From Escherichia coli (GTDB lineage: Bacteria; Pseudomonadota; Gammaproteobacteria; Enterobacterales; Enterobacteriaceae), in NCBI RefSeq assembly GCF_003790525.1, contig NZ_CP033635.1: a stretch of 64,000 nt of DNA; one strand, given 5' to 3'. The position numbers and the translations under genes were made by a program. Under the pieces are notes generated by a model. The model was given only the letters and a program-made list of their open reading frames with translations. It was not told where the DNA came from and made no database searches. Numbering within the stretch: position 1 is the first letter of the stretch; each line of letters opens with the position of its first letter. Positions 16,594 through 22,174 of the stretch are shown piece by piece.

Positions 16594-16722
16594 ATGAATA
16601 CTAACGTTTTTCGACTGCTCCTGCTGGGAAGCCTGTTCAGCCTTAGCGCCTGTGTGCAGCAAAGCGAAGTGCGGCAGATGAAACACAGCGTCAGCACACT
16701 GAACCAGGAGATGACGCAACTC
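16594..16722 (+). pseudogene. yajI: 5' fragment of lipoprotein gene yajI, interrupted by an IS200/IS605-family element
   Basis: MNTNVFRLLLLGSLFSLSAC lipoprotein signal; the frame continues into IS-derived sequence after codon 43 (MTQL, 16711-16722). Confidence 0.75.
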
Positions 16723-16733
16723 ATTGACATCCT

Positions 16734-16753
16734 CCACGCCCTGAAGGACGTGG
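16734..16753. repeat. Subterminal hairpin at the tnpB-proximal end of the IS element (right-end type)
   Basis: ccacg / cgtgg stem with loop ccctgaagga, about 11 nt inside the inferred end. Confidence 0.6.
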
Positions 16754-16766
16754 ATCCCTGCTACGT

Positions 16767-17975
16767 TCAGGCTGTCGCCTGAATCATTTCGGTGGGTTCC
16801 TGCTTCAACGGGCGGCCTGACTGCACCATCCCTCCACAGGCAAGAACGGCGTGCCCCGCCGCTAAAATGTTACGAGCGCCATTTACATCGGCGTTCGCTG
16901 TATATCCACATACCTGGCATCTGAATTGACTTTGTGACAGGCGATTTTCTTTCGCTGTATGACCACAGCACGTGCAACGCTGGCTTGTGTACGCTGGCGG
17001 AACAGCAAGCACCTGACCGCCACGCCAGAGCTGCTTGTACTCAAGCTGGCGGCGCATTTCATACCAGCCCTGATCCAGTACCGAACGGTTTAAACCTGAT
17101 TTTGCCCGGACATTGCGTCCCGGCTGGCTGACCGTACCCGCTGCTGACTTTGACATGTTGCTGACCTTCAAATCCTCAATGACTATCATTGCGTGGTTTT
17201 TGCTGACGGTCGTTGTGACTTTGTGAAGGTAGTCCCTGCGGATATTTGCGATACGGGAATGCAGTCGCTGTATTTTGCGTTTCTGCTTCTGCCAGTTATT
17301 GCTGAATTCGACCTTGCGGCTTAACTGTCGCTGAAGTCTCGCCAGCGTCTTCTGGTTTTTCTGAAAACTGTTTACAGGCTCAAAGACTGTGCCATCTGAC
17401 AGCGTGGCGAGTTTAGCCACGCCAGCATCCAGCCCGACCATTGATGCTGAAGGGTGAACCGGAGTGGATACTTCACTTTCTGTCTGAATACTGATGTACC
17501 ACTTACCGCAGGACTGGCTGACAGTGACATTTTTCACAACACCCGTGACCTGGCGGCTGTTCCGGTAGCGCATCCAGCCCAGTTTCGGCAGAAAAATACG
17601 GCTGTTTTCCTGATCGAGCTTAACGCCCTGCGGGTAGCGGAATGCATCATTCTGTCCCCGCTTTTTGAATCGGGGAAAAGCAGCCCGCTTCTGGAAGAAG
17701 TTTTTGTAAGCCCGCTCAAGGTCTTTCAGTGACTGTTGCAATGGCTGTGAGGGCGAATCTTTAAGCCATTGCGTTCCAGTGGCGTTTTTCCACTCAACCA
17801 GCCAGGAAGCCATTTTCCCGTAAGGGATGTATTTATTACCGGCCTCATGATTCTCATTCTGAAGCGCCAGAGCACGATTGAAAACGAAACGACATGCGCC
17901 TGCGAAGCGCCTCATTTCATGCTCCTGTTGACCACCGGGTCTTAACTGGAATTTAAATGCCTGTAGTCGTTTCAC
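16767..17975 (-). CDS. tnpB: TnpB (OrfB) RNA-guided endonuclease of an IS200/IS605-family element
   Basis: 402 aa; RuvC-like motifs ([23 protein letters not shown]) and a C-terminal CxxC...CxxC zinc finger; N-terminal KFQLRP...RFVFNRAL helix; GTG start at 17975. Confidence 0.88.
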
Positions 17976-18045
17976 AGGTCAAATTATATTTTGGTCTGTG
18001 AAAAAAGAAACCGATATCCGGCGTGGAAGGCATTGTGTTTTCCTG

Positions 18046-18420
18046 ATGCATGTTCACCTGGTCTTTGTCCCAAATACCGACGCCAGATTTTTGACCATGA
18101 CGCGACAGAAAAACTACGCACTTACTTTTCAAATGTATGTGCTGATTTTGAAGCTGAACGGGTTGAAATGGATGGCGAACCAGATCACGTCCATTTGTTA
18201 ATTAACTATCCTCCCAAACTGGCGATATCCAGTCTGGTAAACAGCCTCAAAGGTGTATCGGGTAGGTGACTGCGACGAGATCGACCAGATATTGCAGTCA
18301 GGTATTACTACAAAGGCGTTTTGTGGAGTCCTGGCTATTTTGCCAGTAGCTGCGGAGGTGCGCCAATATCCGTCATCCGCCAATACATTGAACAACAGCA
18401 AACACCTGGTCAGGTGGAAA
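18046..18420 (+). pseudogene. tnpA: IS200-type HUH (Y1) transposase tnpA, disrupted by at least two frameshifts
   Basis: Conserved segments are split across three frames: MHVHLVFVP (frame of 18046), PKYRRQIF...EPDHVHLLINYPPKL...SLKGVS (frame of 17991) and WSPGYFASSCGGAPISVIRQYIEQQ (frame of 18321). The first shift coincides with the aaa run at 18071-18073. Confidence 0.75.
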
Positions 18421-18434
18421 ACCGCGCCTTATAT

Positions 18435-18454
18435 CCCCGCCCTGAAGGACGGGG
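18435..18454. repeat. Subterminal hairpin at the tnpA-proximal end of the IS element (left-end type)
   Basis: ccccg / cgggg stem with the same ccctgaagga loop as at the other end, about 19 nt inside the inferred end. Confidence 0.6.
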
Positions 18455-18472
18455 TTTTACGGCGCACCGGAT

Positions 18473-18880
18473 AAAGAAACCGTCAAAATCACTCAGCAAA
18501 ACAGGCTGAATGCAAAATCCAGCAGTGGGGTTTACCTTCTGCCTGGAGCGAAAACACCGGCAAGACTGGAAAGCCAGATCGGTACTTTACGTATGTCGCT
18601 AGTGAATATTACGCATGATACAGATGGCACCACCCTGACGCTACGTATTCAGGGCGAGTCGAATGACCCCTTGCCCGCATTCAGCGGAACTGTTGAATAT
18701 GGGCAAATTCAGGGAACAATAGACAACTTTCAGGAAATCAATTTGCAGAATCAATTGATTAATGCCCCTGCCAGCGTCCTCGTCCCCAGCGATGTTGATA
18801 TTCCGTTACAGTTAAAGGGGATTTCTGTAGAACAGTTAGACTTTGTACGTATCCACGACATTCAACCTGTTATGCAGTAA
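18473..18880 (+). pseudogene. yajI: 3' fragment of yajI downstream of the IS insertion
   Basis: Frame reads ...ETVKITQQNRLNAKSSSGVYLLPGAKTPARLESQIGTLRMSLVNITHDTDG... to a stop at 18878-18880; out of frame with the 5' fragment because of the insertion. Confidence 0.7.
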
Positions 18881-20063: not shown

Positions 20064-20073
20064 TTGTGAGAAT

Positions 20074-20099
20074 GCCGGATTTCATATCCGGCATTTTTT
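20074..20099 (+). terminator. Rho-independent terminator after tsx
   Basis: gccggat (20074-20080) / atccggc (20086-20092) stem, loop ttcat, followed by a T-run. Confidence 0.65.
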
Positions 20100-20100
20100 A

Positions 20101-20448
20101 TCACTTCTTCTTGTTCATCATCGCTTTCAGGTCAGCGAATGGGTTGTACTTCGCTTCACCGACATCTTTCTGCGCATCTTCCCCTGCGATAACGGTCGTA
20201 CCATACTGATCCGCTTCGGTATATTTCGAATGCTCATGATCGTGGCAATAGAGACAAAGCAATTCCCAGTTACTGCCATCTTCCGGGTTATTGGTATGGT
20301 CGTGATCAATGTGGTGAACGGTAAGTTCACGCAGGTTGGAATAAACAAACTCACGGGAACAGCGACCGCAGACCCACGGATAGATTTTTAATGCTTTTTC
20401 GCGATAGCCGCTTTCTAACCGCGCATAGTTTTTTGGGATGATAGCCAT
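20101..20448 (-). CDS. yajD: HNH-family nuclease-like protein YajD
   Basis: 115 aa with the HNH signature (VHHIDHDHTNN ... CLYCHDHEH). Confidence 0.9.
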   Translation of the reverse strand: MAIIPKNYARLESGYREKALKIYPWVCGRCSREFVYSNLRELTVHHIDHDHTNNPEDGSNWELLCLYCHDHEHSKYTEADQYGTTVIAGEDAQKDVGEAKYNPFADLKAMMNKKK

Positions 20449-20535
20449 GAAAAGTTACCTGGATGAAATGTAGGGTTACGCGCAGTTTCCCAAGATGCGG
20501 GGATTTTCGCAATCCTGAGTCAAGAAATTCTCACA

Positions 20536-20850
20536 TTACCAGTGACGGCGAGGTTCCATCAGCTGATGAAGAATGCGCGCAATGAGAATGTCATCGACTC
20601 TTATAACGTAATAAACAGTGTGAAACCTAAATGCGATCTTCTTTACCTCTGGAATCGCATCATAGTCTTGCCCTATCTCGGGCATTTGAGAGAGTGTATC
20701 CAGAAAAATGCCGAGAGAGTCGGTATAGCGATCCGCCTGCTCCTCACCAAACTTTCCCAGCGTGTAGTCATAGATCCCTCTGAAATCTTCAACAGCTTTT
20801 CCGCTAAGCTTATACACGATGTTTTTGCTTCCTTTCTGCTGCGATATCAC
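20536..20850 (-). CDS. ParE/RelE-superfamily type II toxin
   Basis: About 100 aa with a ParE-like profile (KNIVYKLSGKAVEDFRGIYDYT ... RFHTVYYVIRVDDILIARILHQ); only in-frame start is GTG at 20850, overlapping the antitoxin 3' end by 41 nt, so the start is uncertain. Confidence 0.65.
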   Translation of the reverse strand: MISQQKGSKNIVYKLSGKAVEDFRGIYDYTLGKFGEEQADRYTDSLGIFLDTLSQMPEIGQDYDAIPEVKKIAFRFHTVYYVIRVDDILIARILHQLMEPRRHW

Positions 20851-21052
20851 GAAGCGTCATCGAACTTTCACCGCTCTCAAGACCTTCAATAACAGCATTT
20901 CTGACAGCTTCATCCCTGGATTCTTGTTGTTCCAATAGACGAAGCGCTGAACGCATTACTTCACTGGCCGAGCCATAACGACCAGACTGGACCATCCGTG
21001 TAATAAAACTATCTAATTGTTCGCCAACGCTTACTGAGGTAATTTTGCGCAT
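20810..21052 (-). CDS. ParD/CopG-like ribbon-helix-helix antitoxin
   Basis: 80 aa, ...SFITRMVQSGRYGSASEVMRSALRLLEQQE... typical of the ParD antitoxin family; ATG at 21052 with ggagat Shine-Dalgarno; immediately upstream of the ParE-like toxin. Confidence 0.7.
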   Translation of the reverse strand: MRKITSVSVGEQLDSFITRMVQSGRYGSASEVMRSALRLLEQQESRDEAVRNAVIEGLESGESSMTLRDIAAERKQKHRV

Positions 21053-21202
21053 AAGCGATCTCCATGTATTAACTATTAATACAAAGTATATGTCAGAACT
21101 CTTTCTACAACCAAACCGTATTCAGTTGCATGTGAAACAGGCAAAAAAAACCGCAGCGCAAATACGCCACGGTTTTTTTAACAGAACGGATTTAAAACAC
21201 CC

Positions 21203-22174
21203 TTAAGGCAGAATTGACGGCTGATCCGCCCCTTCTTTTTCCACTTTCTGCTGCAGCATGTGTTCGCGCTTCATACCCAGTTTCAGAGCCAGCGCCGATG
21301 CTACGTAGATGGAAGATGCAGTACCGATGGAAACACCGATAAGCATGGTCAGCGAGAAGCCTTCCAGTACCGGACCACCGAAGAGGTACAGCATCAGGAT
21401 AACCATCAAGGTAGTACCGGATGTGATCAAGGTACGGTGCAGCGTCTGGGTCAAGGACACGTTAAAGATTTCGTAAGGCGTACCGCGACGGATCTTGCGG
21501 AAGTTTTCACGAATACGGTCCGATACCACGATACTGTCGTTAAGCGAGTAACCGATAACTGACATCAACGATGCCACAATGGTCAGGTCAATCTCGATAT
21601 GGAATAACGACAAAATACCCAGCGTAATGATAACGTCGTGCGCCAGCGCAATAACAACCCCTGCCGCCAGTCGCCACTCAAAGCGGAAACCTACGTACAC
21701 GAGGATAGACAGCAGCGCCGCCATCAACGCCATCGCACCGGTTTGCGCAAGGTCTGCCCCCACGCTCGGCCCGACGAACTCAATACGCTTCACTGCCGCA
21801 TTCTGATTGGTGGATTCGTTAATCACCTTCAGAACCTGGCTGCCCAGCACCTGACCGCCGGTTTCGCCTTCAGCAGGCGGCATACGGACCATGATGTCGT
21901 GGCTGCTACCAAAGTTTTGCAGCATCGGCTCTTCAAAACCGGCTTTTTGCAATGCATCACGCATTACGTCAATTTCAGCCGGTTTTTCGAGCGTAATTTC
22001 AATAACCGTACCACCGGTGAAATCCAGCCCCCAGTTAAAGCCGCGCACGCCCATAATAACGATAGCGGCGATTAACAGCAGACCAGAGATGCCGAAAGCC
22101 CAGTAGTCCCAGCGCATAAAGTCATAGACTTTACGGCCGTGGTTTAGTTGTTCAACAGTATATTCCTGTGCCAC
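21203..22174 (-). CDS. secF: Protein translocase subunit SecF
   Basis: Conserved protein begins (V/M)[21 protein letters not shown] at GTG 22174 (323 aa); the track ORF is over-extended. Confidence 0.92.

Follow-up and report, generated by a model that had tools for sequence, protein, structure and literature searches.

Poisoning of DNA gyrase is established for RK2 ParE, Vibrio cholerae ParE2 and Mycobacterium tuberculosis ParE1 and ParE2. This activity, and its neutralization by ParD, have been described (PMC10899793; bioRxiv 10.1101/2025.07.24.666505; PMC11925232). In the V. cholerae ParD2-ParE2 system (PDB 7B22 and 7R5A), the ribbon-helix-helix (RHH) N terminus of ParD2 binds DNA, its C terminus wraps ParE and ParE2 poisons gyrase, and a W25F substitution lowered the toxicity of VcParE2 (bioRxiv 10.1101/2025.07.24.666505). 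For M. tuberculosis (Mtb) ParDE1 (8C24), both gyrase poisoning and negative autoregulation have been shown experimentally (PMC10899793). In PrpA-PrpT of Pseudoalteromonas rubra (7YCS and 7YCU), too, the toxin belongs to the ParE family and the antitoxin is an RHH protein of ParD type (PMC9731233). Some ParE proteins are weak or otherwise active, including an mRNA-cleaving subcluster and the non-toxic ParE1 of Pseudomonas aeruginosa (bioRxiv 10.1101/2025.07.24.666505).

Integration of toxin-antitoxin (TA) modules between chromosomal genes is a known pattern (PMC7167474). Both ccdO157, in the folA-apaH spacer of Escherichia coli O157:H7, and mazEF or parDE in relA-mazG are plasmid-type type II modules lodged between core genes, present in some lineages only and prone to decay (PMC7167474). 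Here we analysed a window of 64,000 nucleotides of E. coli DNA (NZ_CP033635.1), identical (100%) to the sequence of strain SMS-3-5, in which a ParD-ParE pair lies between secF and yajD. The pair is very probably a canonical type II addiction module of the kind found on enterobacterial plasmids, fixed in some E. coli chromosomes by replacement of a spacer.

Its closest described relatives are plasmid parDE modules, exemplified by that of the E. coli IncX5 plasmid pKPC-bca9 (NZ_CP026204.1) and by those of a Klebsiella michiganensis IncFII plasmid (NZ_CP056138.1), a Serratia plasmid (NZ_OX461106.1) and Salmonella pLG25p2 (NZ_CP045058.1). They share with it a 243-nt parD, an 8-nt GTGTATAA overlap, a GTG toxin start, a parE of ~285 nt and a corresponding palindrome that follows the -10 element and precedes the ribosome-binding site of parD; identity is ~70% at the DNA level, and their toxins are 57-63% and their antitoxins 75-78% identical to those encoded here. 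The plasmid modules adjoin repA or parA/parG and have promoters near consensus (TTGACA-17-TATCAT), whereas this copy is chromosomal, sits between housekeeping genes and has a weak promoter. Because the nearest relatives adjoin plasmid replication or partition genes, an origin in plasmid addiction is indicated.

The systems of known structure are more distant. Both proteins are homologous over their full length to those of Mtb ParDE1 and Caulobacter crescentus ParDE1 (3KXE), which share the V/I-L-H-Q-x-M C-terminal motif and a chromosomal location with this pair but differ in host, in genomic context, in toxin sequence (~31-32% identity) and in having Trp, rather than Phe, at the loop of the alpha-hairpin. 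V. cholerae ParD2 is the best solved match for the antitoxin, and ParE2 resembles the toxin in fold (TM 0.83) but only weakly in sequence (E = 5e-4, 28% identity); parDE2 lies in the chromosome II superintegron (PMC7167474), whereas this pair lies between core genes. Among solved structures, PrpT matches the toxin best (E = 8e-8, TM 0.87, r.m.s.d. 1.6 Å, 28% identity), but PrpAT is plasmid-borne, PrpA also controls plasmid replication and its recognition motif, (G/A)TTTG(T/A)AAT(A/G), is unlike the palindrome described below (PMC9731233). PaaR2-PaaA2-ParE2 (5CW7 and 5CZF), from the O157:H7 prophage CP-933P, has a ParE fold (TM 0.76, 19-20% identity) but comprises three components, with a non-RHH PaaA2 and a separate regulator (PMC7167474), as opposed to the classical two-gene ParD-ParE arrangement here. 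The likeness to ccdO157, which encodes a toxin of the CcdB family at another site, is one of pattern only.

The ParD and ParE proteins and the toxin start

A preliminary description of this DNA proposed an 80-amino-acid RHH antitoxin followed, in antitoxin-first order, by a toxin of the ParE/RelE fold, and each of these points was borne out. The first gene, parD (20810-21052, minus strand), encodes WP_001226938.1, which matched PF03693 (E = 1.7e-22, 80 bits, cut-off 21) and TIGR02606 (95.7 bits, cut-off 46.2) far beyond chance; a match to RHH_1 was weak. A search of PDB sequences aligned residues 1-69 with V. cholerae ParD2 (7b22, E = 2.9e-19) and also returned C. crescentus (Cc) ParD1 (E = 1.9e-13) and Mtb ParD1 (E = 3.3e-10). 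By homology to these solved proteins, ParD is predicted to carry an RHH domain at its N terminus and the part that binds the toxin at its C terminus.

The toxin reading frame follows on the same strand and ends at 20536. Its product matched PF05016 over profile positions 1-88 of 89 (E = 6.9e-14, 52.6 bits, cut-off 23), again far beyond chance. The 104-amino-acid form had no NCBIfam match at E ≤ 0.01, which leaves membership of the ParE family unweakened because NCBIfam does not define that family. Full-length sequence matches in the PDB were PrpT (7ycs), Mtb ParE1 (8c24, E = 9e-8) and Caulobacter ParE1 (3kxe, E = 3e-7). An AlphaFold model built from a 44-sequence alignment had a pLDDT of 91.7 and a pTM of 0.83 (an earlier model from 15 sequences, with a pLDDT of 54.9, was discarded) and contained two helices (residues 6-23 and 25-44) and three strands (58-63, 66-72 and 77-84). 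In a Foldseek search of the PDB with this model, the best 23 matches were all ParE toxins (TM 0.76-0.87). Thus, the toxin is predicted to adopt the ParE-type fold, an alpha-hairpin on a three-stranded antiparallel sheet, nearer to ParE than to RelE-type ribonucleases.

All family-invariant residues are kept, including R81-x-L83-H84-Q85-x-M87. The five named positions are invariant across the 44 sequences, PrpT, Mtb ParE1 and Cc ParE1 among them, and belong to a conserved C-terminal motif, R-[IV]-L-H-Q-x-M, common to the solved ParE toxins. The equivalent of Trp25, a key residue of VcParE2, is Phe23. This residue, together with the fact that not every ParE poisons gyrase strongly, speaks against assigning the protein as a strong gyrase poison.

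The start of parE had been misplaced. The preliminary description named a GTG giving a 41-nt overlap with parD as the only in-frame start, a reading that arose because the longest possible open reading frame was taken; a second in-frame GTG lies at 20817. Initiation there yields a 93-amino-acid ParE (20536-20817, minus strand; WP_000277485.1) and an 8-nt overlap with parD, GTGTATAA, at 20810-20817 (minus strand), within the last parD codons and stop. RefSeq places the start of this 282-nt gene at the same GTG, and the Pfam alignment begins at residue 13 of the long frame, corresponding to residue 2 of the 93-amino-acid form. In all four plasmid homologues inspected, the conserved ATC-GTG-TAT-AA is preceded by TAG or TGA stops in the frame of the toxin. 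The 104-amino-acid toxin starting at GTG 20850 was therefore rejected as an over-extension, the homologue stops, the RefSeq start and the Pfam alignment all being against it. The 8-nt overlap is kept in four plasmid relatives and at 9 of 9 species-representative loci that had a full-length parE match; the true overlap is 8 nt, typical of the family, and probably couples translation of the two genes.

A replaced spacer and its regulatory signals

The flanks of the module are conserved. On one side lies yajD (20101-20448, minus strand), identified by PF01844 and its RefSeq annotation as an HNH nuclease, and on the other secF (21203-22174, minus strand; RefSeq annotation), whose product, WP_000046637.1, is annotated as the identical protein in SMS-3-5, O157 strain 4276 and K-12. 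With tsx and secDF, these are housekeeping genes, and no defence genes adjoin the module. The gap between yajD and secF is oversized as first described, at 754 bp compared with 128 bp in K-12, and both the sequence and the population data support extra DNA relative to that strain. It is not, however, a clean insertion. Alignment with the O157 allele and with K-12, whose site is empty, delimited a strain-variable segment of 688 bp (20515-21202, unstranded); the secF-yajD spacer of K-12 has 62 bp of unrelated sequence at this point, so that the secF terminator was exchanged as well. The left junction is common to the SMS-3-5 and O157 alleles. The GC content of the segment is low, at 43.5% compared with 53.3% in secDF, in keeping with a foreign origin. 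Besides parD and parE, it contains nothing but regulatory signals, namely a terminator for secF that is new to the site, a putative weak promoter and a palindrome of 19 bp. No repeats, integrase or transposase were found at its ends (20515 and 21202), giving no indication of a mobile element.

The secF terminator within the segment is a predicted intrinsic one (21143-21179, minus strand), recognized by RNA folding and as an inverted repeat: a hairpin followed by U8 (ΔG -25.1 kcal/mol, z = -4.18), 23 nt past the secF stop. The K-12 spacer has its own, different hairpin and U-run. Downstream of it we read a putative weak sigma-70 promoter (21085-21114, minus strand), TTGGTT (21109-21114) and TATACT (21085-21090) separated by 18 nt. 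It has 8 of 12 consensus matches, below the 9/12 threshold of the promoter and terminator consensus scan that called nothing in 20400-21300; plasmid homologues have TTGACA-17-TAT(C/T)AT at the same position. The parD promoter is inferred only. A Shine-Dalgarno sequence, GGAG (21060-21063, minus strand), precedes the parD ATG by 7 nt.

Between the promoter region and this ribosome-binding site sits a conserved dyad-symmetric sequence. An inverted-repeat search identified it as a perfect 8-3-8 palindrome, TGTATTAA-tag-TTAATACA on the parD strand (21065-21083, unstranded), 12 nt from the parD ATG. A related palindrome was found upstream of parD in 18 of 18 pairs, at a distance from the ATG of 9-13 nt in 16 and 17-19 nt in 2, and the changes among them are symmetric in the two arms, as in TGTGTTAA-tag-TTAACACA. 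This pattern makes the palindrome a strong candidate for the ParD operator.

By analogy with characterized systems, a ParD dimer would bind the palindrome through its N-terminal RHH domain and repress parDE transcription, while the C-terminal half of ParD would wrap and neutralize ParE. Translation of parE would proceed at a lower level through coupling at the GTGTATAA overlap. Were labile ParD not replenished, free ParE would be expected to poison DNA gyrase. It is by analogy that this pair is credited with a toxic, gyrase-targeting ParE and with a labile ParD that binds its operator.

The 87-nt spacer between parE and yajD (20449-20535, minus strand) has no terminator-like structure by folding (z = -0.29), no hairpin with a U-run and no terminator call in the consensus scan; parDE transcripts may therefore read through into yajD. 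Searches of Rfam gave sub-threshold chance matches only, at the tsx terminator, and no RNA element in the module.

Distribution, decay and possible roles

RefSeq already annotates the two products, correctly, as ParD antitoxin and 'RelE/ParE family toxin', and does so across hundreds of genomes. The Sakai strain of O157:H7 has the genes as ECs0461 and ECs0462, named 'plasmid stabilization system protein', and a published list of O157 pangenome markers includes the toxin under the name 'ParE4' (PMC12472240). Apart from this marker list, searches of the literature by locus tag and protein accession found no experimental study of ECs0461/ECs0462 or of the SMS-3-5 pair, which is apparently uncharacterized experimentally.

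Universal presence at this position, which would have placed the module in the conserved backbone, was not what we found: 426 of 5,426 complete E. coli genomes (~8%), O157:H7 included, carried the pair, always on the chromosome. Every copy inspected lay at the yajD-secF position, and the yajD-parDE-secF stretch was unbroken in 424 of the 426 carriers. A ParD-motif scan, which demands an exact 18-residue motif and would miss divergent copies, found no copy in the representatives of other Escherichia species; across species representatives it returned 14 loci, not one of which lies close to secF, yajD or tsx. Relatives were present on 105 plasmids, 11 of them from Escherichia, and no plasmid toxin exceeded 63% identity. 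The phage collection contained no relatives of the pair, and a prophage origin was ruled out on that ground. Outside E. coli, the best identities reached 66% for ParE and 84% for ParD, with no ParE relative between 66% and 97%.

Today the module is most likely a mere passenger of the chromosome, selfish or neutral, that is undergoing slow decay in some strains and may still cross-react with its parDE relatives on plasmids. A clearly less favoured alternative is that it is a functionally decayed remnant whose ParE is non-toxic or weak, with ParD alone mattering as a repressor, as an anti-addiction antitoxin against plasmid ParE, or both. In the anti-addiction form, ParD would neutralize the ParE of plasmids such as IncX5 and IncFII and so free the host from plasmid addiction. 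Chromosomal TA modules are known both to decay and to play anti-addiction roles, with ccd and ataRT as documented examples (PMC7167474). At this locus, frameshifted or truncated toxin variants exist in some strains, and an IS3 element separates parD from parE in strain E105; the toxin is nonetheless annotated as intact in all other carrier genomes listed, and a full-length 93-amino-acid toxin with all family-invariant residues is encoded by both diverged E. coli alleles. The lower conservation of ParE than of ParD outside E. coli fits decay of the toxin, as do the differences between the SMS-3-5 and O157 alleles (three synonymous and no non-synonymous in parD, one and two in parE), although counts from two alleles are far too small for statistics. 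The C-terminal, toxin-binding halves of plasmid ParDs are 72-75% identical to that of this ParD and the related plasmids circulate in E. coli, as the 11 Escherichia plasmids attest, both of which favour anti-addiction. Against it, ParD/ParE pairs with ~60% toxin identity often fail to cross-neutralize.

Other activities are considerably less probable. The idea that the toxin, instead of poisoning gyrase, cuts mRNA as a ribosome-dependent endonuclease in the manner of RelE draws on the superfamily fold that ParE and RelE share, on the RefSeq product name and on the mRNA-cleaving ParE subcluster in a phylogeny cited by bioRxiv 10.1101/2025.07.24.666505. We consider this highly improbable, as all 23 best structural matches were ParE, with RelE, YoeB and YafQ at TM ≤ 0.67 (0.47-0.67 when HigB is included, E ≥ 3.7e-3), the sole Pfam match was ParE_toxin, the partner is of ParD type and gyrase is the target of Mtb ParE1 and VcParE2, the nearest relatives for which a target has been established. 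The preliminary description had suggested a part in stress response or phage defence, and abortive infection or a stress-response function seems scarcely more plausible than RNase activity. Some type II TA systems do restrict phages (PMC7167474), and the module, like defence genes, varies in its presence from strain to strain. Yet PADLOC-DB v2 gave no family for ParD or ParE at E ≤ 0.01, the phage collection held no relatives, the neighbours are secDF, yajD and tsx instead of defence genes, and the relatives are found not in defence islands but beside genes for plasmid replication and partition; nothing in the sequence bears on stress response. The suggested role thus found no support. Among the neighbours, YajD alone gave weak HNH (ZorE) matches in PADLOC-DB v2.

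The passenger reading is preferred, and it is unlikely that the module does more, with ParD acting as an anti-addiction factor or YajD placed under TA-style control. The latter arises because there is no terminator between parE and yajD. The anti-addiction reading has its basis in a ParD up to 84% identical to those of other genera and 75-78% identical to sampled plasmid ParDs, and in a near-identical operator. If true, a ParD-regulated promoter would give the HNH nuclease YajD conditional control in these lineages only, and ParD anti-addiction would shape which IncX- and IncF-type parDE plasmids are lost or kept by O157:H7- and SMS-3-5-like lineages. Also within this unlikely reading, the toxin, isolated and fast-diverged as it is, could have changed its target or its potency.

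The pair is of slight importance beyond housekeeping: what has been gained are corrections, namely an ordinary toxin start and overlap, and a spacer replacement that also exchanged the secF terminator. The toxin may serve as an extra ParE for comparative studies of gyrase poisons and the module as a convenient lineage marker. For E. coli, the locus adds one more case of plasmid-type TA pairs lodged between core genes and decaying there.

A parDE pair between secF and yajD

On the minus strand the gene order is secD, secF (ending at 21203), an 80-aa open reading frame (20810-21052), a second open reading frame ending at 20536, and yajD (20101-20448); tsx lies on the plus strand, convergent with the yajD side of the locus. 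The secF-yajD spacer measures 754 bp here versus 128 bp in K-12 MG1655. This difference and the layout of the reading frames show that the preliminary description was correct in its basic observation of extra DNA at this site relative to K-12. The SMS-3-5 chromosome is 100% identical to the window over the 1.1 kb queried (20300-21400).

The 80-aa product had been called a ParD-like antitoxin, and its scores against Pfam ParD_antitoxin (80 bits, cut-off 21) and TIGR02606 (95.7 bits, cut-off 46.2) bear this out. Its residues 1-69 align with the solved V. cholerae ParD2 (E=2.9e-19), and it also aligns with the solved structures of Caulobacter ParD1, M. tuberculosis ParD1 and P. rubra PrpA. The assignment of the downstream product to the ParE-fold toxins likewise holds, given its match to Pfam ParE_toxin (52.6 bits, cut-off 23), end-to-end alignments with PrpT, M. 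tuberculosis ParE1 and Caulobacter ParE1 (E about 1e-7), and its structural model. A first AlphaFold model from a 15-sequence alignment was poor (pLDDT 55); a 44-sequence alignment from the homologue search gave a pLDDT of 91.7 and a pTM of 0.83. In a Foldseek search of the PDB with this model, places 1-23 were all ParE toxins (TM 0.76-0.87), and the ribonucleases RelE, YoeB, YafQ and HigB scored 0.47-0.67. Every position that does not vary in the 44-sequence alignment is retained in the protein, R81-x-L83-H84-Q85-x-M87 among them.

RefSeq already labels the two proteins ParD antitoxin and RelE/ParE toxin (ECs0461/ECs0462 in Sakai), and the toxin has been listed as an O157 marker, 'ParE4' (PMC12472240). 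A literature search, from which many subscription papers were absent, turned up no experiments on the pair. The feature is real, ordinary and already recognised.

Toxin start and the replaced segment

The preliminary description gave the toxin a single in-frame start, a GTG with a 41-nt overlap into parD. This was wrong: the GTG at 20850 (104 aa) opens the longest reading frame and does nothing more, and a second in-frame GTG at 20817 yields a 93-aa ParE with an 8-nt overlap, in which ATC-GTG-TAT-AAG at the toxin start overlaps CGT-GTA-TAA at the end of parD. GTG 20817 is the RefSeq start in SMS-3-5, O157:H7 and Sakai, and the Pfam ParE_toxin alignment begins at residue 13 of the 104-aa form. 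Four plasmid homologues carry TAG or TGA in the toxin frame between the two GTG positions, making the long form impossible there, and conserve the ATC-GTG-TAT-AA junction; every one of the nine species-representative loci whose parE matches over its full length has the 8-nt overlap as well. An AAGGAAG motif lies ~10 nt 5' of GTG 20817, but no Shine-Dalgarno sequence was found at good spacing, so parE is likely to be translated through coupling to parD.

In an alignment with the K-12 and O157 alleles, homology to the empty K-12 site ends after 20514 on the yajD side and picks up again with the stop codon of secF. In between, the window has a segment of 688 bp (20515-21202; GC content 43.5%, versus 53.3% for secDF) where K-12 has 62 unrelated bp. 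The 62 bp of K-12 include its own secF terminator; the window has a different one, a minus-strand hairpin followed by U8 (21143-21179; RNA fold dG -25.1 kcal/mol, z -4.2). Reading of the sequence also gave a weak minus-strand promoter candidate, TTGGTT-18-TATACT (21085-21114), an inverted-repeat search gave a perfect palindrome, TGTATTAA-tag-TTAATACA (21065-21083), and a minus-strand GGAG precedes parD within the segment. Open-reading-frame and repeat searches of the window found neither repeats nor recombinase genes at the segment ends (20515 and 21202).

In a comparison of 18 pairs, made up of the window, O157 and 16 further relatives, a related palindrome always precedes the parD ATG: by 9-13 nt in 16 pairs, where it comes straight after the -10 element, and by 17-19 nt in the other two. 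Its arms vary symmetrically (TGTATTAA...TTAATACA, TGTGTTAA...TTAACACA, TGTGTTGA...TTAACACA), as would be expected of a dyad to which a ribbon-helix-helix repressor binds as a dimer. This candidate operator agrees with published autoregulation of ParDE1 (PMC10899793) and PrpAT (PMC9731233).

No terminator-like structure was found in the 87-nt gap between parE and yajD (20449-20535; fold z -0.29), so transcription may continue into yajD, and in strains carrying parDE this HNH nuclease gene may share a transcript that starts at the promoter ParD is predicted to control. The segment also alters the sequence just 5' of the conserved yajD leader (TTGACT here versus TTGATG in K-12). The yajD product gave a weak PADLOC match to ZorE, the HNH nuclease of Zorya type II (E=4e-7, HNH region only), most likely reflecting the common HNH domain and nothing beyond it.

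Two further differences lie nearby. The tsx-yajD spacer is 37 bp in the window (20064-20100), with nothing but the shared hairpin terminator, and 176 bp in K-12 and O157 (L003, a comparison locus, 1126-1301); the ~139 bp extra resemble REP-type palindromic units (GCCGGATGCGGCG..., GGCCTGATAAGCG...GCATCAGGC). The DUF3251 lipoprotein gene yajI (16594-18880 with its insertion; coordinates here converted from the SMS-3-5 record), intact in O157 Sakai, is split by an IS200/IS605-family element into fragments at about 16594-16722 and 18470-18880. The element carries an intact minus-strand tnpB (about 16767-17975) for a 402-aa TnpB/InsQ RNA-guided endonuclease and a frameshifted tnpA pseudogene (about 17983-18407); in strain AR_0013 a tnpA pseudogene adjoins a 5'-truncated yajI at the same place.

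Distribution, decay and predicted activity

The module is present in 426 of 5426 complete E. coli genomes, in every case on the chromosome, and the remainder have the short K-12-type spacer; its presence at the yajD-secF junction is thus variable. A single alignment spans yajD, parDE and secF in 424 of the 426, and every inspected copy was at this site. By allele, the genomes divide into about 78 of the SMS-3-5 type (at least 99% identity) and about 348 of a type that is 95-99% identical, 98.6% in all listed O157:H7 genomes. The two alleles have a common left junction and differ by three synonymous changes in parD and by one synonymous and two non-synonymous changes in parE.

Most copies are intact. 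Four toxin variants (P0008, P0024, P0032 and P0039) are frameshifted or truncated to 54-78 aa and are 97-100% identical to the toxin over the common part, indicating that the toxin is inactivated in a minority of strains. In E. coli E105 (NZ_CP071375.1; L009:1398-3228), an IS3-family element lies between parD and parE, leaving a 76-aa ParD and cutting the toxin gene off from the parD promoter; the strain tolerates this natural uncoupling.

Family, fold, architecture and the conserved dyad are established here. By analogy with the family, ParD dimers would repress their own promoter through the palindrome, the ParD C-terminus would wrap and neutralise ParE, and translational coupling would lower ParE output; on depletion of ParD, ParE would trap gyrase cleavage complexes. 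Published experiments have shown such trapping with M. tuberculosis ParE1/ParE2 (PMC10899793) and with V. cholerae ParE2 (bioRxiv 10.1101/2025.07.24.666505), and the mechanism is summarised in PMC11925232. Some ParE-family members are reported to cleave mRNA, and P. aeruginosa ParE1 is described as non-toxic (bioRxiv 10.1101/2025.07.24.666505). The key Trp25 of VcParE2, where a Trp-to-Phe change lowered toxicity (same preprint), corresponds to Phe23 in the window ParE.

It is plausible that the module is decayed or acts in anti-addiction, as ParD is conserved more than ParE, related plasmids are present in E. coli and decay alleles are known. A RelE-like ribonuclease is unlikely, because both fold and Pfam profile point to ParE. 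The stress-response or phage-defence role suggested in the preliminary description has no support: neither protein has a PADLOC match, housekeeping genes lie on both flanks, and the relatives occur in plasmid maintenance contexts. What stands of that description is the pair itself, not the detail of its overlap or the functional speculation.

Plasmid relatives and origin

A degenerate-DNA search for the ParD motif GRYGSASEVMRSALRLLE, with one genome per species, returned 14 loci, including Shimwellia, Pectobacterium, Erwinia, Pantoea, Serratia, Yersinia, Xenorhabdus, Enterobacter cancerogenus and a Pseudomonas plasmid; none was in another Escherichia species, and none was near secF, yajD or tsx. 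Relatives with ~70% DNA identity reside on conjugative IncX5, IncFII and other plasmids, adjoining repA or parA/parG. Protein-level relatives were found on 105 plasmids (maximum 63% identity), and a protein-level search of a phage collection found none. On the Serratia proteamaculans plasmid NZ_OX461106.1 (L006:1093-2320), parDE adjoins genes for a helix-turn-helix regulator and a protein of the reverse transcriptase family; mazEF lies close by and repA on the opposite side, and together they form a cluster of genes for maintenance or possibly defence.

Among 5.8 billion database proteins, nothing outside the E. coli toxin's own cluster (97-100%) exceeds 66% identity to it; for the antitoxin, relatives from other genera are up to 84% identical. 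Divergence is thus uneven (20536-21052 against loci L011-L023 and toxin homologues P0003-P0046): at most 84% for ParD across genera and at most 66% for ParE outside its own cluster, with Gly21, Arg64 and Leu86 of ParE differing from nearly all other relatives. This asymmetry may reflect a separate sub-lineage, or selection that has been relaxed or has shifted. The ParD proteins of Pantoea sp. alder81 (L016:1854-2093) and a Pseudomonas sp. T1-3-2 plasmid (L017:7724-8166) are 82-84% identical to that of the window; downstream there is no ParE match in the former and one limited to residues 28-70 in the latter, and the toxin may have been lost or replaced in both.

Integration of plasmid-type toxin-antitoxin pairs between chromosomal genes is a described pattern (PMC7167474). 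The most economical account of this locus is that a plasmid-type parDE cassette was acquired once, long ago, and then spread by vertical descent or by recombination between lineages.
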